DNA of 13,133 nt, from UHGV virus genome UHGV-1722641; one strand, 5' to 3'. The translations under genes and the position numbers were made by a program. The notes beneath the pieces were generated by a model. That model did no database searches. It was not told where the DNA came from and saw only the letters and a program-made list of their open reading frames with translations. The DNA is from a virus. Position 1 is the first letter of the stretch. Each line of letters begins with the position of its first letter. Shown here piece by piece: positions 4,936-13,133 of the stretch.

Positions 4936-5432
4936 TGCCGGTAATTAACACGCATCAGAATATCGCCGCCTTTCTCGACATGCTGGCCGTGTCCGAAGGG
5001 ACGGCGAATCATCCGCTGACGAAAAACCGGGGCTATGACGTGATAGTCACCGGACTGGACGGGAAGCCGGAAATCTTCACCGACTACAGTGACCACCCGT
5101 TCGCACATGGCCGACCGGCGAAGGTGTTTAACCGTCGCGGTGAAAAATCCACGGCCTCCGGTCGCTATCAGCAGCTTTACCTGTTCTGGCCGCATTACCG
5201 CAAACAGCTTGCCCTGCCGGATTTCAGTCCGTTGTCACAGGACAGACTTGCCATTCAGTTGATCCGCGAACGCGGTGCACTGGATGACATCCGGGCGGGA
5301 CGCATTGAGCGCGCCATTTCACGCTGTCGCAATATCTGGGCGTCCCTGCCGGGTGCCGGTTACGGTCAGCGTGAGCATTCACTGGAAAAACTGGTCACCG
5401 TCTGGCGTACCGCTGGCGGCGTACCGGCTTAA
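4935..5432 (+). CDS. K: Endolysin (lysozyme) gpK
   Basis: 165-aa ORF MPVINTHQNIAAFLDMLAVSEGTANHPLTKNRGYDVIVTG..., matching recalled P2 gpK. The start overlaps the Y stop by one base (TAATG). Confidence 0.9.
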   Translation: MPVINTHQNIAAFLDMLAVSEGTANHPLTKNRGYDVIVTGLDGKPEIFTDYSDHPFAHGRPAKVFNRRGEKSTASGRYQQLYLFWPHYRKQLALPDFSPLSQDRLAIQLIRERGALDDIRAGRIERAISRCRNIWASLPGAGYGQREHSLEKLVTVWRTAGGVPA

Positions 5433-5446
5433 ACGGAGTAAACACC

Positions 5447-5872
5447 ATGAAGAAATTATCCCTTTCACTGATGCTGAACGTGTCGCTGGCGCTGATGCTG
5501 GCACTGTCCCTGATTTACCCGCAGAGCGTGGCCGTCAGTTTTGTCGCTGCCTGGGCGATTCTGGCGACGGTTATCTGTGTGGTTGCCGGTGGTGTCGGCG
5601 TGTATGCCACTGAGTATGTGCTGGAACGCTACGGGCGGGAGCTGCCGCCGGAATCGCTGGCCGTGAAGATTGTCACGTCGCTGTTTTTGCAGCCGGTGCC
5701 GTGGCGCAGACGGGCGGCGGCTCTGGTGGTGATGGTGGCGACGTTTATCTCGCTGGTCGCTGCCGGGTGGATTTTTACCGCGCTGATTTATCTTGTGGCG
5801 TCGGTGTTCTTCCGGCTGATTCGTACGGCCTGCCGTCAGCGTTTTGAGGGGCGGGAACCATGTCAAAGCTGA
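5447..5872 (+). CDS. lysA: LysA, membrane protein of the lysis cassette (putative antiholin)
   Basis: 141-aa highly hydrophobic protein MKKLSLSLMLNVSLALMLALSLIYPQ... with several predicted transmembrane segments and a GGAG ribosome-binding site upstream. Position after K matches P2. Confidence 0.85.
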   Translation: MKKLSLSLMLNVSLALMLALSLIYPQSVAVSFVAAWAILATVICVVAGGVGVYATEYVLERYGRELPPESLAVKIVTSLFLQPVPWRRRAAALVVMVATFISLVAAGWIFTALIYLVASVFFRLIRTACRQRFEGREPCQS

Positions 5873-6285
5873 TGATTGTGCTGGTCGTGTTGTTATCGCT
5901 GGCGGTGGCGTGGCTGTTTCTGGCGAAGCATGAAAACGCCAGCCTGCGCGCCTCACTGGACAGGGCGAACAGCGTCGCCAGCGGGCAGCAGACGACCATC
6001 ACCATGCTGAAAAATCAGCTTCATGTTGCGCTCACCAGGGCAGACAAAAACGAGCTGGCGCAGGTGGCACTGCGTCAGGAACTGGAGAACGCCGCGAAGC
6101 GTGAAGCACAGCGCGAGAAAACCATCACGAGGTTACTTAATGAAAACGAGGATTTTCGCCGCTGGTACGGTGCTGACCTGCCTGATGCTGTGCGCCGGTT
6201 GCACCAGCGCCCGGCCTGCGCCGACGCCAGTGATTGTCCACAACGCCTGCCCGAAAGTGAGCCTTTGCCCGATGCCGGGCAGTGA
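5860..6285 (+). CDS. lysB: LysB, Rz-like inner-membrane spanin
   Basis: 141-aa ORF with an N-terminal transmembrane segment (MSKLMIVLVVLLSLAVAWLFLA) followed by a charged, likely coiled-coil region. Start overlaps the lysA 3' end. Confidence 0.85.
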   Translation: MSKLMIVLVVLLSLAVAWLFLAKHENASLRASLDRANSVASGQQTTITMLKNQLHVALTRADKNELAQVALRQELENAAKREAQREKTITRLLNENEDFRRWYGADLPDAVRRLHQRPACADASDCPQRLPESEPLPDAGQ

Positions 6286-6430
6286 CCCGGAGACGAACGG
6301 CGATTTAAGTGCCGATATCCGGCAGCTTGAGAACGCGCTGGCACGCTGTGCCAGCCAGGTAAAAATGATTAAACACTGTCAGGACGAAAACGATGCTCAA
6401 ACCCGACAGCCTGCGCAGGGCGCTGACTGA
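6140..6430 (+). CDS. lysC: LysC, Rz1-like outer-membrane lipoprotein spanin, in the +1 frame relative to lysB
   Basis: Internal ATG at 6140 of track ORF 6023..6430, with ACGAGG a few bases upstream. Product MKTRIFAAGTVLTCLMLCAGCTSARPAPTPV... has a signal peptide, a lipobox-like CAGC and a Pro-rich mature region. It overlaps the lysB 3' end and the R start. Confidence 0.75.
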   Translation: MKTRIFAAGTVLTCLMLCAGCTSARPAPTPVIVHNACPKVSLCPMPGSDPETNGDLSADIRQLENALARCASQVKMIKHCQDENDAQTRQPAQGAD

Positions 6431-6860
6431 TGCCGTCACGGTGCTGAAAACTAACCCCGATATGCTGCGGATATTCGTGGATAACGGGAGTATTGCCTCC
6501 ACACTGGCGGCGTCGTTGTCATTCGAAAAGCGTTACACGCTCAATGTGATTGTGACCGACTTTACCGGTGATTTTGACCTGCTCATCGTGCCGGTGCTGG
6601 CGTGGCTGCGGGAAAATCAGCCCGACATCATGACCACCGACGCAGGCCAGAAAAAGGGCTTCACGTTTTATGCGGACATCAACAATGACAGCAGCTTTGA
6701 TATCAGCATCAGCCTGATGCTGACCGAGCGCACGCTGGTCAGTGAGGTGGACGGCGCGCTGCATGTGAAGAATATCCCGGAACCTCCGCCGCCGGAGCCG
6801 GTCACCCGCCCGATGGAGCTGTATATCAATGGCGAACTGGTGAGCAAGTGGGATGAATGA
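6393..6860 (+). CDS. R: Tail completion protein gpR
   Basis: 155-aa ORF MLKPDSLRRALTDAVTVLKTNPDMLRIFVDNGS..., matching recalled P2 gpR. Confidence 0.88.
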   Translation: MLKPDSLRRALTDAVTVLKTNPDMLRIFVDNGSIASTLAASLSFEKRYTLNVIVTDFTGDFDLLIVPVLAWLRENQPDIMTTDAGQKKGFTFYADINNDSSFDISISLMLTERTLVSEVDGALHVKNIPEPPPPEPVTRPMELYINGELVSKWDE

Positions 6861-7305
6861 GTTTAAGCGTTTTGAAGACCGGCTGACCGGACTGATTGAA
6901 TCGCTGTCACCGTCAGGGCGTCGGCGACTGAGTGCCGAACTGGCGAAACGTCTGCGGCAGAGTCAGCAGCGCCGGGTGATGGCACAGAAAGCCCCGGACG
7001 GCACACCCTACGCGCCACGCCAGCAGCAGAGCGCCAGAAAAAAGACCGGTCGTGTTAAGCGAAAAATGTTTGCGAAACTTATCACCAGTCGTTTTTTGCA
7101 TATCCGCGCCAGCCCGGAACAGTCATCAATGGAGTTTTACGGCGGGAAGTCACCGAAAATCGCCAGTGTGCATCAGTTCGGTCTGTCGGAAGAAAACCGG
7201 AAAGACGGTAAGAAAATTGATTATCCGGCGCGTCCTCTGCTCGGCTTTACCGGTGAGGATGTGCAGATGATTGAAGAGATTATCCTGGCTCACCTCGACC
7301 GTTAG
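6853..7305 (+). CDS. S: Tail completion protein gpS
   Basis: 150-aa ORF MNEFKRFEDRLTGLIESLSPSGRRRLSAELAKRL...; overlaps the R 3' end by 8 nt. Confidence 0.88.
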   Translation: MNEFKRFEDRLTGLIESLSPSGRRRLSAELAKRLRQSQQRRVMAQKAPDGTPYAPRQQQSARKKTGRVKRKMFAKLITSRFLHIRASPEQSSMEFYGGKSPKIASVHQFGLSEENRKDGKKIDYPARPLLGFTGEDVQMIEEIILAHLDR

Positions 7306-7371
7306 TTGTGCCATTCCTGACACCTCATCGTCACATTGCCGCCGGTATGACCCGGCGGCATCCTTCCCGTT
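7306..7371 (+). promoter_or_regulatory. Putative late promoter region upstream of V, with TGT-N12-ACC at 7307..7324 and a GC-rich hairpin at 7337..7360
   Basis: 66-bp S-V gap. The TGT...ACC element is one mismatch from the P2 late-promoter dyad TGT-N12-ACA. A 9-bp perfect inverted repeat tgccgccgg / ccggcggca with a 6-nt loop is followed by a pyrimidine-rich tccttcccgtt. Confidence 0.35.
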
Positions 7372-8007
7372 ATGAACACTCTCGCAAATATTCAGGAACT
7401 CGCGCGCGCACTGCGCAACATGATTCGCACCGGCCTTGTCGTCGAAACCGACCTTAACGCCGGTCGCTGCCGTGTGCAGACCGGCGGCATGTGCACCGAC
7501 TGGCTTCAGTGGCTGACCCATCGCGCCGGACGTTCGCGCACATGGTGGGCACCTTCCGTGGGGGAACAGGTGCTGATTCTGGCCGTGGGCGGTGAACTCG
7601 ACACGGCGTTCGTTCTGCCGGGGATTTATTCCGGCGATAACCCCGCGCCGTCTGCGTCGGCGGATGCCCTGCATATCCGTTTCCCTGACGGGGCGGTGAT
7701 TGAGTATGAACCCGAAACCAGTGCACTCACGGTAAGCGGAATTAAAACGGCCAGCGTGACGGCTTCTGATTCTGTTACTGCCACGGTGCCGGTGGTCATG
7801 GTGAAAGCATCAACCCGCGTCACCCTGGACACACCGGAGGTGGTCTGCACCAACAGGCTGATTACCGGCACGCTGGAAGTGCAGAAGGGCGGGACGATGC
7901 GCGGCAACATTGAACACACCGGCGGTGAACTCTCATCAAACGGTAAGGTACTGCATACCCATAAACACCCCGGCGACAGCGGCGGCACAACCGGGAGTCC
8001 TCTATGA
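7372..8007 (+). CDS. V: Baseplate spike / assembly protein gpV
   Basis: 211-aa ORF MNTLANIQELARALRNMIRTGLVVETDLNAGRCRVQTGG..., matching recalled P2 gpV. Confidence 0.9.
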   Translation: MNTLANIQELARALRNMIRTGLVVETDLNAGRCRVQTGGMCTDWLQWLTHRAGRSRTWWAPSVGEQVLILAVGGELDTAFVLPGIYSGDNPAPSASADALHIRFPDGAVIEYEPETSALTVSGIKTASVTASDSVTATVPVVMVKASTRVTLDTPEVVCTNRLITGTLEVQKGGTMRGNIEHTGGELSSNGKVLHTHKHPGDSGGTTGSPL

Positions 8008-8351
8008 CAGCGCGTTATCTCGGAATGAATCGCAGTGATGGCCTGACTGTCACTGACCTTGAGCATATCAGCCAGAGTATCGGCGATATCCTGCGCACAC
8101 CGGTCGGCTCACGGGTGATGCGTCGTGATTACGGCTCGTTGCTGGCGTCAATGATTGACCAGCCGCAGACCCCGGCGCTTGAGTTGCAGATTAAGGTCGC
8201 CTGTTACATGGCGGTGCTGAAATGGGAACCCCGCGTCACCCTGTCATCCGTCACCACGGCGCGCAGCTTTGACGGGCGAATGACGGTCACGTTAACCGGC
8301 CAGCACAACGACACCGGCCAGCCACTTTCGTTAACCATCCCTGTGAGTTGA
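8004..8351 (+). CDS. W: Baseplate wedge protein gpW
   Basis: 115-aa ORF MTARYLGMNRSDGLTVTDLEHISQSIGDILRTPVGSRV...; ATGA overlap with the V stop and GGGAG upstream. Confidence 0.9.
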   Translation: MTARYLGMNRSDGLTVTDLEHISQSIGDILRTPVGSRVMRRDYGSLLASMIDQPQTPALELQIKVACYMAVLKWEPRVTLSSVTTARSFDGRMTVTLTGQHNDTGQPLSLTIPVS

Positions 8352-8355
8352 AACC

Positions 8356-9264
8356 ATGCCGATTATCGACCTGAACCAGCTACCCGCACCGGATGTGGTC
8401 GAGGAGCTGGACTTTGAAACCATTCTCGCCGAACGCAAGGCGACACTGATTTCCCTTTACCCGGAAGACCAGCAGGAGGCGGTCGCCCGTACCCTGACGC
8501 TGGAATCTGAGCCTCTCGTCAAACTGCTGGAGGAAAATGCTTATCGTGAGCTTATCTGGCGTCAGCGTGTGAATGAGGCCGCACGGGCGGTGATGCTGGC
8601 CTGTGCCGCCGGTAATGACCTTGATGTGATTGGTGCCAATTACAACACCACGCGCCTGATTATCACCCCGGCAGATGATTCGACTATCCCGCCGACACCG
8701 GCAGTGATGGAGTCTGACACCGATTATCGTCTGCGTATTCAGCAGGCGTTTGAGGGCTTAAGCGTCGCCGGGTCGGTGGGAGCCTATCAGTATCATGGTC
8801 GCAGTGCCGACGGGCGTGTCGCGGATATCTCTGTCACCAGTCCGTCTCCGGCCTGCGTCACCATCTCTGTGCTGTCACGTGAAAATAACGGTGTCGCATC
8901 CGAAGACCTGCTGGCGGTGGTGCGTAACGCCCTTAATGGCGAGGACGTCAGGCCGGTGGCCGACCGCGTGACCGTGCAGTCTGCCGCCATCGTTGAATAC
9001 CAGATAAACGCCACGCTTTACCTTTACCCTGGTCCCGAAAGCGAACCCATCCGCGCTGCCGCCGTGAAAAAACTGGAAGCGTATATCACGGCACAGCACC
9101 GGCTGGGGCGCGACATCCGTCTGTCTGCCATTTATGCCGCTTTGCATGTGGAAGGCGTGCAGCGTGTCGAACTGGCTGCACCACTGGCCGACATCGTGCT
9201 CAACAGTACGCAGGCGTCTTTCTGTACCGAATACCGCGTCGTGACCGGAGGCTCGGATGAGTGA
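8356..9264 (+). CDS. J: Baseplate protein gpJ
   Basis: 302-aa ORF MPIIDLNQLPAPDVVEELDFETILAERKATLISLYPEDQQ..., matching recalled P2 gpJ. Confidence 0.9.
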   Translation: MPIIDLNQLPAPDVVEELDFETILAERKATLISLYPEDQQEAVARTLTLESEPLVKLLEENAYRELIWRQRVNEAARAVMLACAAGNDLDVIGANYNTTRLIITPADDSTIPPTPAVMESDTDYRLRIQQAFEGLSVAGSVGAYQYHGRSADGRVADISVTSPSPACVTISVLSRENNGVASEDLLAVVRNALNGEDVRPVADRVTVQSAAIVEYQINATLYLYPGPESEPIRAAAVKKLEAYITAQHRLGRDIRLSAIYAALHVEGVQRVELAAPLADIVLNSTQASFCTEYRVVTGGSDE

Positions 9265-9787
9265 TTCGCGCCTGCTGCCGACCGGCTCATCACTGCTTGA
9301 AGTCGCTGCCGCAAAAGCCTGTGCGGAAATTGAAAAAACGCCGGTCAGTATTCGTGAGCTGTGGAACCCGGACACCTGCCCGGCAAATCTGCTGCCGTGG
9401 CTGGCGTGGGCGTTTTCGGTCGACAGGTGGGATGAAAAGTGGCCGGAAGCGACAAAACGCGCCGTTATCCGCGATGCCTATTTCATCCACTGTCATAAAG
9501 GCACTATAGGCGCAATCCGGCGTGTGGTGGAGCCGCTCGGCTATCTCATCAACGTGACGGAGTGGTGGGAAAACAGTGACCCGCCCGGCACCTTCCGGCT
9601 TGATATTGGTGTACTGGAAAGCGGTATCACAGAGGCAATGTATCAGGAAATGGAACGGCTGATTGCTGATGCCAAACCTGCAAGCCGCCACCTTATTGGC
9701 CTGAACATTACCCGGGACATTCCCGGCTACCTGTTCGCCGGTGGTGTGGCTTACGACGGCGATGTAATTACGGTTTACCCCGGATAA
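9257..9787 (+). CDS. I: Baseplate protein gpI
   Basis: 176-aa ORF MSDSRLLPTGSSLLEVAAAKACAEIEKTPVSIRELWNPD...; GGAGG upstream; overlaps the J 3' end by 8 nt. Confidence 0.9.
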   Translation: MSDSRLLPTGSSLLEVAAAKACAEIEKTPVSIRELWNPDTCPANLLPWLAWAFSVDRWDEKWPEATKRAVIRDAYFIHCHKGTIGAIRRVVEPLGYLINVTEWWENSDPPGTFRLDIGVLESGITEAMYQEMERLIADAKPASRHLIGLNITRDIPGYLFAGGVAYDGDVITVYPG

Positions 9788-9797
9788 GTGAGGAATA

Positions 9798-11795
9798 ATG
9801 AGCACAAAATTCAGAACCGTTATCACCACTGCCGGTGCAGCAAAGCTGGCAGCGGCAACCGCGCCGGGAGGGCGGAAGGTCAACATTACCACGATGGCCG
9901 TCGGGGATGGCGGTGGTAAATTGCCTGTCCCGGATGCCGGACAGACCGGGCTTATCCATGAAGTCTGGCGACATGCGCTGAACAAAATCAGCCAGGACAA
10001 ACGAAACAGTAATTATATTATCGCAGAGCTGGTTATTCCGCCGGAGGTGGGCGGTTTCTGGATGCGTGAGCTTGGCCTGTACGATGATGCGGGAACATTA
10101 ATTGCCGTGGCGAACATGGCCGAAAGTTATAAGCCAGCTCTTGCCGAAGGCTCAGGGCGTTCGCAGACCTGTCGCATGGTCATCATCGTCAGCAGTGTGG
10201 CCTCAGTGGCGCTGACCATTGACACCACAACGGTGATGGCGACGCAGGATTACGTTGATGACAAAATTGCAGAGCATGAACAGTCACGACGTCACCCGGA
10301 CGCCTCGCTGACCGCAAAAGGTTTTACTCAGTTAAGCAATGCGACCAACAGCACGTCTGAAACACTGGCCGCAACGCCGAAAGCGGTTAAGGCCGCATAT
10401 GACCTTGCTAACGGGAAATATACTGCGCAGGATGCCACCACAGCGCGAAAAGGTCTTGTCCAGCTCAGTAGTGCCACCAACAGCACGTCTGAAACGCTCG
10501 CCGCAACACCAAAAGCGGTAAAGGCAGCATATGACCTTGCTAACGGGAAATACACTGCACAGGACGCCACCACAGCGCGAAAAGGTCTTGTCCAGCTCAG
10601 TAGCGCCACCAACAGCGATTCTGAAACGCTTGCGGCAACGCCAAAGGCGGTTAAGACAGCGTATGACCTTGCTAACGGAAAATACACTGCACAGGACGCC
10701 ACCACGGCGCGGAAAGGTCTTGTTCAGCTCAATAGTGCCATCAACAGCGATTCTGAAACGCTGGCTGCAACACCAAAAGCGGTGAAGTCTGCCTATGACA
10801 ATGCTGAAAAACGTCTTCAGAAAGATCAAAATGGCGCGGATATTCCTGATAAAAGATTATTCCTGCGCAATATTGGAGCAACAAATTCAACAACCATGTC
10901 TTTTAGTGGTGGTACAGGATGGTTCAGGCTGGCAACTGTAACCATGCCACAGGCCAGTTCCGTGGTTTACATAAGTCTGATTGGTGGTGCTGGATATAAT
11001 GTTAACTCCCCTATGCAGGCTGGTATATCTGAACTTGTTCTTCGTGCGGGAAATGGAAATCCAAAAGGTCTTACTGGTGCGTTATGGCGACGGACATCGG
11101 TTGGATTTACTAATTTTGCATGGGTGAATACATCCGGTGATACCTATGATGTTTATGTTGAAATAGGTAATTACGCCACAGGTGTTAATATTCAGTGGGA
11201 TTATACCAGTAACGCCAGCGTAACGATTCATACATCACCAACTTATACAGCGAATAAACCAACAGGTCTTACAGATGGAACTGTATATGTAATTTACAGT
11301 TCGCACATTAAACCGACTGCTGCTGATGTTGGGGCGTTGTCATTATCTGGAGGTCAATTGAATGGTGCACTGGGCATCGGAACATCCAGTGTTCTTGGTG
11401 GTAACTCAATTGTTTTGGGTGATAATGACACGGGCTTTAAACAAAATGGTGACGGTAATCTGGATGTTTATGCTAATAACGTTCATGTTATGCGCTTTGT
11501 CTCCGGTAGCATTCAAAGTAATAAAACCATAAATATTACGGGTCGTGTTAATCCCACAGATTACGGTAACTTTGATTCCCGCTATGTCCGGGATATCCGG
11601 CTTGGTGGTGCTGCCACATACAAACCTGCGAACAATGGCATGACATGGACACATCAGGCACCGTCCGGGTGTGTATATTCCGGCATTATTATTCAGGATA
11701 CCGGCTCAAACTCTGCCGATAACATTGGTGGCGTATATTACAGACCGGTGCAGAAATACATTAACGGGACATGGTATAACGTGGCGCAGGTATAA
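9798..11795 (+). CDS. H: Tail fiber protein gpH, mosaic: P2-like N-terminus, expanded internal repeats, divergent low-GC C-terminal receptor-binding region
   Basis: 665-aa ORF with GTGAGGA upstream. N-terminus MSTKFRTVITTAGAAKLAAATAPG... resembles P2 gpH; the middle holds about 3.7 tandem 44-aa repeats (KGLVQLSSATNSTSETLAATPKAVKAAYDLANGKYTAQDATTAR). The C-terminal half is low GC but keeps the conserved patch VLGDNDTGFKQNGDGNLDVYAN and the C-terminal QKYINGTWYNVAQV. Confidence 0.88.
   Translation: MSTKFRTVITTAGAAKLAAATAPGGRKVNITTMAVGDGGGKLPVPDAGQTGLIHEVWRHALNKISQDKRNSNYIIAELVIPPEVGGFWMRELGLYDDAGTLIAVANMAESYKPALAEGSGRSQTCRMVIIVSSVASVALTIDTTTVMATQDYVDDKIAEHEQSRRHPDASLTAKGFTQLSNATNSTSETLAATPKAVKAAYDLANGKYTAQDATTARKGLVQLSSATNSTSETLAATPKAVKAAYDLANGKYTAQDATTARKGLVQLSSATNSDSETLAATPKAVKTAYDLANGKYTAQDATTARKGLVQLNSAINSDSETLAATPKAVKSAYDNAEKRLQKDQNGADIPDKRLFLRNIGATNSTTMSFSGGTGWFRLATVTMPQASSVVYISLIGGAGYNVNSPMQAGISELVLRAGNGNPKGLTGALWRRTSVGFTNFAWVNTSGDTYDVYVEIGNYATGVNIQWDYTSNASVTIHTSPTYTANKPTGLTDGTVYVIYSSHIKPTAADVGALSLSGGQLNGALGIGTSSVLGGNSIVLGDNDTGFKQNGDGNLDVYANNVHVMRFVSGSIQSNKTINITGRVNPTDYGNFDSRYVRDIRLGGAATYKPANNGMTWTHQAPSGCVYSGIIIQDTGSNSADNIGGVYYRPVQKYINGTWYNVAQV
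10317..10803 (+). repeat. Tandem 132-bp direct repeats (about 3.7 copies) inside gpH, encoding a 44-aa fiber repeat
   Basis: Unit boundaries read directly at 10317, 10449, 10581 and 10713, in frame with H. Units differ at scattered positions, mostly third-codon, but are clearly the same sequence. The minus-strand track ORFs 10328..10705 and 10332..10829 are mirror artefacts of this repeat. Confidence 0.9.
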
Positions 11796-11798
11796 TTT

Positions 11799-12326
11799 AT
11801 GCAGCATTTGATAAATATAACGGCGGGTAATCCAAAAACGGTTGAACAATATCAATTGACAAAGGACTTTGATGTTGTCTGGTTTTTTTCAGAAGATGGT
11901 AAGAACTGGTACGAAGAACAAAAGTATTTTGCTGATGACACGATAAAAATAGCGTACGACAAAGATAATATTATCCGCTATGTGGAAAAGGATGTGACAG
12001 CTATCAGACCGGATGGATTAAGTGTTGTTGAAGTGGCGGATATTACTGCTAACCGACGGGCGGACATTTCAGGGGGCTGGATGTTTAAGGACGGCAAAGT
12101 GATTAAACGCATTTATACGGCAGAGGAATTGCAGCAGCAGGCAGAAATTCGGAAAGCCAGACTTCTTGCAGATGCTGAATCCGTGATTTTGCCGCTGGAG
12201 CGCGCGGTCAGACTGAACATGGCAACAGATGAGGAGCGTAGCCGACTGGAAGCATGGGAACGCTACAGCGTTCTGGTCAGTCGTGTGGATCCTGCAAATC
12301 CTGAATGGCCGGAAATGCCGCAATAA
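11799..12326 (+). CDS. G: Tail fiber assembly chaperone gpG
   Basis: 175-aa ORF starting 3 nt after the H stop. The C-terminal part (...[37 protein letters not shown]...EWPEMPQ) is the conserved fiber-assembly domain; the N-terminal half is low GC like the 3' half of H. Confidence 0.85.
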
Positions 12327-12595
12327 GTTGTATGAACTCTGGTGTGAGCTTACATATCTATGGCACAGAGTAAAGCCTAATCTGACAGTCCGCTCTGTGC
12401 CAGAAGCGGACGTTGCGGGACGTCAGATATCTAAAAAAACTAATGGTCCGCTTGGATAGATACTTACACAGGATGCAATAAAGAGTTTCTATTTCTTTGT
12501 GGTAGCAAACTTTGATTTCTGAAGGATAATACCTCCAATAAGTTGAAATCACATATATCGCTAAAGACTCTATACAACAACCAAGAGAGACCGCA
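12327..12595 (+). promoter_or_regulatory. AT-rich non-coding spacer upstream of the cargo ORF; likely carries its own promoter
   Basis: 269 bp with no convincing ORF, a strong composition drop relative to the phage core, a -10-like GATAAT at 12525..12530 and TTGAAA at 12543..12548. I could not pair a convincing -35/-10 by eye. Confidence 0.3.
12361..12402 (+). other. 10-bp perfect inverted repeat (stem-loop) just downstream of the G stop, at the core/cargo boundary
   Basis: tggcacagag (12361..12370) and ctctgtgcca (12393..12402) with a 22-nt loop; followed by a GGACGT direct repeat (12408..12413 and 12418..12423), the palindrome AGATATCT (12425..12432) and an A7 run. No U-tract, so not a classical intrinsic terminator. 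Confidence 0.3.
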
Positions 12596-13133
12596 ATGGA
12601 TAGTGTCAGTAGTGTTGAGCGTTTAAGAACAAAAGCTTTTTATCAGTTGCTTGTGGATAGGCTTGGAACTGAGGCCTGGGCTGCTCGCAAAGCTGCATAT
12701 TTCAAGCGCATAAGAGAGAAGGAGGCTAAGTTTAACATCAATCTGCCGATAGAGCCCCAGCTCTTCATACCAGCAGAAGATGACATCGACTGGTACATTC
12801 TGGCGTCGTATCTGTCTCATGATTTTCCATATAGTGATGCTACTTACAGCAGCAGACGTATCTACCCCTATGCTATGGCCATCGGAGCTGTTGCAGACCA
12901 GCTTCGCAAAGTCCCATACGTCGATGATGTTCTGGACAAAATGCTAGCAAATAACAATAAACCAGAAACTCAAATTTTTGAGCTGCTGACGGCATCGTTC
13001 TACCTAAAGAACGGCTATGAGGTTGCCTTCATCCCAGAAAGCAGCATTGTTTGGCCCGATGGAAAGACCAAAAAATCACCGGATATGCTTGTCAAGTTAG
13101 GTGATCTGGAGTTCTACGTTGAGTGCAAAAGGT
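12596..13133 (+). CDS. Hypothetical cargo protein, 5'-partial view (179 codons, open to window end); possible PD-(D/E)xK-like nuclease motif; candidate accessory/defence gene
   Basis: ATG at 12596 preceded by a purine-rich stretch (AGAGAGA) 6 nt upstream; no stop before 13133. The line 12601..12660 counts 22/60 GC against 41/60 for the first 60 bases of the window. Translation MDSVSSVERLRTKAFYQLLVDRLG...ETQIFELLTASFYLKNGYEVAFIPESSIVWPDGKTKKSPDMLVKLGDLEFYVECKR has an acidic helix, PD, then E-C-K 14 residues later. No resemblance to any P2 structural protein I know. Confidence 0.6.
   Translation, partial: MDSVSSVERLRTKAFYQLLVDRLGTEAWAARKAAYFKRIREKEAKFNINLPIEPQLFIPAEDDIDWYILASYLSHDFPYSDATYSSRRIYPYAMAIGAVADQLRKVPYVDDVLDKMLANNNKPETQIFELLTASFYLKNGYEVAFIPESSIVWPDGKTKKSPDMLVKLGDLEFYVECKR

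Follow-up and report, generated by a model that had tools for sequence, protein, structure and literature searches.

The Z/fun slot of P2-like phages has been cited as a defense locus (PMC13586616). The gene analyzed here compares with P2 Z/fun cargo and with the P2/P4 defense hotspots (Rousset et al. 2022, PMC9122126) in lying in the G/FI slot, flanked by the inverted repeats of the P2-EC67 Z-region record. Its 461-aa product resembles Mrr_cat (PF04471), which shares both its fold class and its E...D...ExK layout and is the commonest weak Pfam match of the family (19 of 108 homologs); both Mrr and the 461-aa gene are solitary nuclease genes without a methyltransferase. However, no family member reaches the Pfam threshold for Mrr_cat (best E 0.0025), and neither the helical N-terminal domain nor the alpha/beta domain at the C terminus is, as far as this can be tested, related to the DNA-binding domain of Mrr. 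Hjc and the AHJR-like REases (PF01870, PF18743; PDB 1gef, 2wcw) are also similar, but Hjc proteins are stand-alone housekeeping dimers of ~120 aa, whereas the 461-aa protein embeds its core in a three-domain chain, is carried on mobile elements and has only sub-threshold sequence scores. AF1548 (PDB 1y88, structural genomics; 8% identity, 184 residues) has no equivalent of the C-terminal domain, and the match is uninformative on function, since AF1548 itself has none known. Shedu SduA, Hachiman HamA, CBASS/type III CRISPR NucC, Cap4 and Can2/Card1 are PD-(D/E)xK effectors of described defense systems; the 461-aa protein differs from these in its accessory domains, and it lacks a helicase, cyclase or CARF/SAVED component, be it as a partner or as part of its own chain. 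By analogy, the predicted core may work like Mrr_cat/Hjc-type nucleases and the Shedu, Hachiman and CBASS nuclease effectors, for all of which the sequence-model tests fail.

What is new is a nuclease family that lacks annotation and has an accessory domain of its own, found in a type of locus that is already well known. We found no anti-phage test of the 461-aa protein in the literature and no paper on it by accession, locus tags or PHROG number, later naming (post-2023) being possible; it is also absent from the text and the accessible supplementary tables of PMC9122126, tables that appear to cover a different P2 hotspot. From its genomic context we lean towards a role in defense.

Position of the gene in a P2-like prophage

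The window, i.e. the whole 13,133-nt stretch of UHGV virus genome UHGV-1722641 that was analyzed, corresponds to the late genes of a P2-like prophage (Peduovirus). Hundreds of E. coli prophages of the P2-like type match its long plus-strand ORFs with their capsid, terminase, lysis, baseplate, tail-fiber and tail-fiber-assembly genes. Near the right end an ORF opens at ATG 12596 (plus strand) and continues without a stop through base 13133 (179 codons). It was assigned to the G/FI (Z/fun) slot because the equivalent of P2 G adjoins it (Table 1). Similarity to other P2-like prophages ceases at 12415, at the end of a direct match (12330–12415) to the ‘left inverted repeat’ of the P2-EC67 and P2-EC48 Z-region records, and G+C content falls from 0.55–0.59 in sampled baseplate and proximal tail fiber genes to 0.42–0.45 in the ORF, which together identify the gene as cargo of this slot.

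The last 804 bases of the window match several E. coli chromosomes, Escherichia phage 899 and Yersinia phage GMG73 over their whole length (99.5% identity). The sequence-only reading had been made on the partial ORF and called for the complete one, which these copies supplied: a gene of 1386 nt encoding 461 aa, found in phage 899 and as WP_001774109.1 in E. coli EcPF40, where it is annotated ‘hypothetical protein’. The order in E. coli and phage records is tail-fiber assembly gene, 461-aa gene, a gene encoding a DUF3800 protein (348 aa) and tail sheath gene.

Two further features were seen in this part of the window. G+C content drops from ~0.54 to ~0.42 near 10600–10800, inside the tail fiber gene (9798–11795), and the tail fiber is 665 aa in the window versus 909 aa in phage 899, which has the same cargo, suggesting that a receptor-binding module has been exchanged here independently of the cargo. 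Just past the stop of the tail-fiber assembly gene, a perfect 10-bp inverted repeat (TGGCACAGAG / CTCTGTGCCA; 12361–12402) overlaps the hairpin at the cassette border; this region folds better than shuffles (z -2.9) and does not fit a terminator pattern.

Table 1 Features of the cargo locus in the window and in related records.
Feature	Record	Position	Strand	Remarks
Tail fiber assembly gene (P2 G equivalent)	Window	11799–12326	+	
P2 backbone flank	Window	12299–12411	+	Equivalent of ‘left inverted repeat’ annotated in P2-EC67 Z-region record
Left-border hairpin repeat, GTCCGC-N12-GCGGAC-GTTGC	Window	12388–12416	+	Klebsiella homology begins at 12388
Conserved cassette upstream region	Window	12417–12595	+	90–99% identical in four genera
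461-aa gene, part in window	Window	12596–13133	+	First 179 of 461 codons; translation identical to phage 899 protein, aa 1–179
N-terminal helical domain (aa 1–120)	Window	12596–12955	+	AlphaFold2 helices 3–23, 25–44, 64–73, 84–117
Predicted PD-(D/E)xK core, visible part	Window	12956–13133	+	alpha1 with E129, beta1, D163 heading beta2, E176-C177-K178 (13121–13129) in beta3
E129 codon	Window	12980–12982	+	
D163 codon	Window	13082–13084	+	
E176 codon	Window	13121–13123	+	
K178 codon	Window	13127–13129	+	
461-aa gene, complete	Phage 899 (L001)	6942–8327		1386 nt
Shared cassette	Phage 899 (L001)	6734–8471		
Shared cassette	Klebsiella (L030)	5793–7530		
Hairpin copies	Phage 899 (L001)	6734–6762, 8438–8466, 8480–8508		
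Hairpin copy, inverted	Phage 899 (L001)	9912–9947		
DUF3800 gene	Phage 899 (L001)	8607–9653		Equivalent of WP_001774110.1; beyond window
424-aa gene	Pseudomonas/Stutzerimonas (L010)	9445–10719		Peptidase_C92 (YaeF/YiiX-like)
424-aa gene	Pseudomonas/Stutzerimonas (L019)	11447–12721		
424-aa gene	Pseudomonas/Stutzerimonas (L020)	5079–6353		
Locus of distant family member P0155 and downstream MethyltransfD12	Conjugative element (L035)	9511–10467		24% identity

Predicted nuclease core

The sequence-only reading had proposed a nuclease signature from two peptides, ETQIFELLTASFYLKNGYEVAFIPE and SPDMLVKLGDLEFYVECKR, which are indeed aa 124–148 and 161–179 of the ORF translation. The motif residues (E129, P162-D163, E176-C177-K178) and their spacing (13 residues from D163 to E176, 14 if counted from P162) are present, but the string by itself does not exceed chance: when these 179 residues are shuffled, PD-x(8-25)-[DE]xK turns up in 12% of cases and the version including the upstream E in 8.4%, and of the 16 P2 structural proteins encoded in the window, 4 also contain PD...[DE]xK. 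It is the placement of the motif in secondary structure, the fold matches and the conservation in distant homologs, not the string, that lift it above chance.

An AlphaFold2 model built from a 31-sequence alignment (pLDDT 86.3, pTM 0.86) shows the alpha-beta-beta-beta-alpha-beta core for which structure prediction had been suggested (helix 123–138, strands 142–145, 164–168 and 171–179, helix 188–208, strand 212–218). E129 lies in the first helix, D163 directly before strand 164–168 and E176 and K178 in strand 171–179, while the second helix, with E190, and the last strand lie past the window. Fold matches to the core include Hjc (PDB 1gef, 2wcw) and AF1548 (1y88), and also Can2, HamA, SduA, McrC, FokI, MspJI and Vsr. 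Whole-chain Foldseek searches of the PDB gave nothing below E 0.047, with short local matches to Hjc and I-Ssp6803I only, and profile searches of PDB sequences with close and diverse alignments returned nothing meaningful.

Conservation was assessed in 108 homologs with 17–55% identity, the columns of the alignment averaging 26%. E129 is the sole invariant column (108/108), K178, E176 and E190 are each found in 107 (the one exception at K178 being R), and position 163 is D in 105 and E in three; all five fall within the seven best-conserved columns, and 104 members have the complete E/D/E/K tetrad. The motif, whose loss among homologs had been named as grounds for abandoning the nuclease reading, is thus retained, and that reading is supported by fold core, motif placement and catalytic-residue conservation. 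The core very probably has the PD-(D/E)xK fold and, because the catalytic residues are near-invariant, is probably also an active enzyme.

Sequence libraries gave only sub-threshold matches. Pfam matched the 461-aa protein to AHJR-like REase at aa 133–204 (16.4 bits, cut-off 26.1), and scanning the 108 homologs one by one (E <= 0.1) gave more than one match for Mrr_cat (19), Hjc (6), AHJR-like (2) and NERD (2), the others listed being single matches; the best Hjc score (E 5.4e-4) is, like that of Mrr_cat, below threshold. All four are nuclease families of the PD-(D/E)xK clan. No model in Pfam, NCBIfam or PADLOC-DB 2.0 (2023) covers the family. The 461-aa query matched none of the PADLOC-DB 2.0 system models (Shedu, Hachiman, CBASS effectors, PD-T4/T7/lambda, HEC and PDC included), and 67 family members gave seven scattered single matches (E above 7e-4).

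Accessory domains

Conserved positions in the N-terminal helical domain are W28, R31, D62, P91 and G97. The C-terminal alpha/beta domain (residues ~240–430) carries Q351 and H361, each present in 107 of 108 homologs, on a par with the nuclease residues, accompanied by conserved E365, E415, R376, K/R337 and H/N400. A profile search with this domain found same-family fragments only and no other architectures, and a fold search found no fold relative, with matches too weak for any enzyme class. Comparison of N-terminal, nuclease and C-terminal sub-alignments by hhalign gave probabilities <1%, i.e. no detectable internal duplication.

The family could be a modification-dependent (type IV-like) solitary enzyme of Mrr type, with the extra domains recognizing modified phage DNA and with no need for a methyltransferase or immunity gene, which would be a sub-case of defense. 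Mrr/type IV enzymes would be recognized by Mrr_cat above threshold plus a modification reader domain, a combination that is lacking here, as Pfam, NCBIfam and the C-terminal fold search recognized no reader domain for modified DNA, and we regard this variant as unlikely. It is very unlikely that the nuclease-like fold is dead or only binds nucleic acid, with activity residing in the C-terminal domain (Q351/H361/E365/E415) or elsewhere: near-invariance of the four canonical catalytic residues and E190 over 17–55% identity is unexpected for a degenerate site, and no enzyme class can be given to the C-terminal domain from matches as weak as those obtained.

A hairpin-bounded single-gene cassette

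The unit common to E. coli P2 and Klebsiella extends from 208 nt before the ATG to 144 nt beyond the stop (~1.74 kb) at 98.6% nucleotide identity, and is shared with Buttiauxella and Pantoea at 90–92%. The Klebsiella locus is not P2-like, the cassette there adjoining a TacA/acetyltransferase toxin-antitoxin pair and preceding an unannotated 453-aa gene, and such identity between an E. coli phage and Klebsiella implies a recent intergenus transfer, as judged from sequence comparison. On the left, homology begins at a hairpin repeat for which 0.01 occurrences per window are expected by chance (alignments to Buttiauxella and Pantoea start 4 and 8 bases further in, respectively). In phage 899, the right breakpoint is just beyond the second copy of this hairpin, a third copy lies 5′ of the DUF3800 gene and an inverted copy adjoins the tail sheath gene, so that each Z/fun cargo gene is flanked by hairpin repeats. 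A shared unit with breakpoints coinciding with repeats identifies the 461-aa gene as a self-contained, horizontally exchanged single-gene cassette, and the repeats look like the borders of stacked, recombination-site-bounded cassettes that are used outside P2 too. The conserved region upstream of the ATG is presumed to hold the cassette's own promoter and 5′ UTR; a simple scan of 12250–12700 detected no sigma-70 consensus and no terminator, and Rfam gave only a chance snoRNA match there (E 0.25).

Such precise borders, near-identity of the cassette across genera and the resemblance of the core to Hjc-type junction resolvases and to the PD-(D/E)xK homing endonuclease I-Ssp6803I might indicate a selfish or structure-specific nuclease (homing-endonuclease-like or resolvase-like) serving mobility of the cassette, not host defense. 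However, the same repeats flank unrelated, nuclease-free cargo (the DUF3800 cassette, P2-EC67 ORF1), the pattern is missing from less closely related homologs (those of P. aeruginosa, Stenotrophomonas and Aeromonas among others) and the protein is 3–4 times larger than homing endonucleases or resolvases, leaving this explanation most improbable.

Distribution and neighboring genes

The gene is present in 42 of 5426 E. coli genomes, which hold most of the terminal 804-base stretch, and among the isolates listed for this match are several of urinary origin or with UPEC in their names. At least 1000 contigs carry the protein with exactly this sequence, and a search restricted to the close family located members in 13 of 185,579 species genomes. 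A word-indexed search gave 132 close relatives (~460 aa, all ‘hypothetical’), the 120 listed ones being 53% identical or more, and an exhaustive profile search gave 518 cluster representatives, mostly full length (430–470 aa). In PHROGs the protein belongs to a family of unknown function. Distribution is patchy, and by operational class the gene is defense-island/MGE cargo.

Neighbors vary by locus, with no conserved partner gene. In P. aeruginosa the homolog is accompanied by Lamassu genes and AbiTii, preceded by an integrase; in a metagenome island by a Gabija-like OLD-TOPRIM/UvrD pair together with a KAP NTPase; and in Stenotrophomonas by a restriction-modification gene of type IIG. Stutzerimonas has an SMC-like ATPase, PIN protein and integrase next to it, Aeromonas HipBA on a conjugative element, Pantoea the end of the tail region of another prophage and Klebsiella TacAT, while two distant members are in conjugative-element or RES-toxin contexts. 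A descriptive census of three ORFs on each side in 12 further genomes identified integrases (5), CapP/CapH, Cap4 nuclease, LmuB-like ATPases, RmrTA, HamA, AbiLi and Schlafen-AlbA as well as ordinary metabolic and regulatory genes.

In three Pseudomonas/Stutzerimonas loci a 424-aa gene lies directly downstream of the homolog. It is identified as Peptidase_C92 in one of them, as are two ORFs of the neighbor census, and may be a lineage-specific partner or merely share the island. P0155, on a conjugative element, has a Dam-like MethyltransfD12 gene 200 nt downstream plus a DUF6996/6997/7226 protein, and in this lineage the nuclease might be part of a restriction-modification-like pair.

The DUF3800 gene (Pfam E 1.4e-5; weak PADLOC PDC-M04A match) was considered and rejected as an obligatory partner, the neighbor being unconserved and a cassette border lying between both genes. 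That the 461-aa protein and the DUF3800 protein form a toxin-antitoxin or addiction pair, with the former as toxin, stabilizing the prophage or cassette, has in its favor that in phage 899 and E. coli EcPF40 the DUF3800 gene comes 280 nt further downstream with the same orientation, and that DUF3800 is associated with retron defense systems (PMC7736814), but is scarcely credible, being largely refuted by missing co-occurrence: the DUF3800 gene is in its own repeat-bounded cassette, the shared cassette stops 144 nt past the stop with a hairpin repeat between the two genes, and the partner occurs only in E. coli P2 copies and is missing at ~20 other loci (Pseudomonas, Stenotrophomonas, Stutzerimonas, Aeromonas, Pantoea and a 98% identical Klebsiella copy included).

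Proposed function

The reading we favor, with somewhat better than even confidence, is that the 461-aa protein is a single-gene anti-phage (superinfection-exclusion) nuclease of the lysogen, with a metal-dependent DNA-cutting core and flanks that gate it. The ~1.74-kb cassette, made up of upstream region, gene and short tail, is inserted between G and the tail sheath gene FI, and the nuclease would be expressed from the lysogen. The protein is predicted to have three domains: a helical one at the N terminus, an Mrr/Hjc-like PD-(D/E)xK core in the middle (E129, D163, E176, K178, E190), which would cut DNA in a metal-dependent manner, and a C-terminal alpha/beta domain with an invariant polar site of its own (Q351, H361, E365, E415). 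Gating by the accessory domains is speculative: these might hold the core inactive, or limit its substrate, until an invading phage brings the target or trigger.

More tentatively, this could be an undescribed single-protein immune system in which the C-terminal Q351/H361/E365/E415 domain acts as sensor or as a second catalytic center licensing the Mrr/Hjc-like nuclease, carried by a hairpin-bounded cassette that moves among P2 phages, conjugative elements and genomic islands by site-specific exchange at the P2 Z-region repeats; we regard this fuller version as possible rather than probable.

That P2 cargo should include a PD-(D/E)xK nuclease will not surprise a specialist; of more interest are the C-terminal site, which is unexplained, and the clean limits of the cassette, whose precise hairpin borders provide a handle on cargo exchange at the P2 Z/fun slot and beyond P2. 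Annotation with Pfam, NCBIfam and PADLOC 2.0 misses the family entirely. If not protective, it would still be a clearly delimited family of nucleases that is widely transferred and has no function assigned to it; if protective, a compact single-gene nuclease system would be added to the defense catalog. Its accessory domains, the C-terminal one above all, could point to a novel means by which infection is sensed or nuclease activity restricted.
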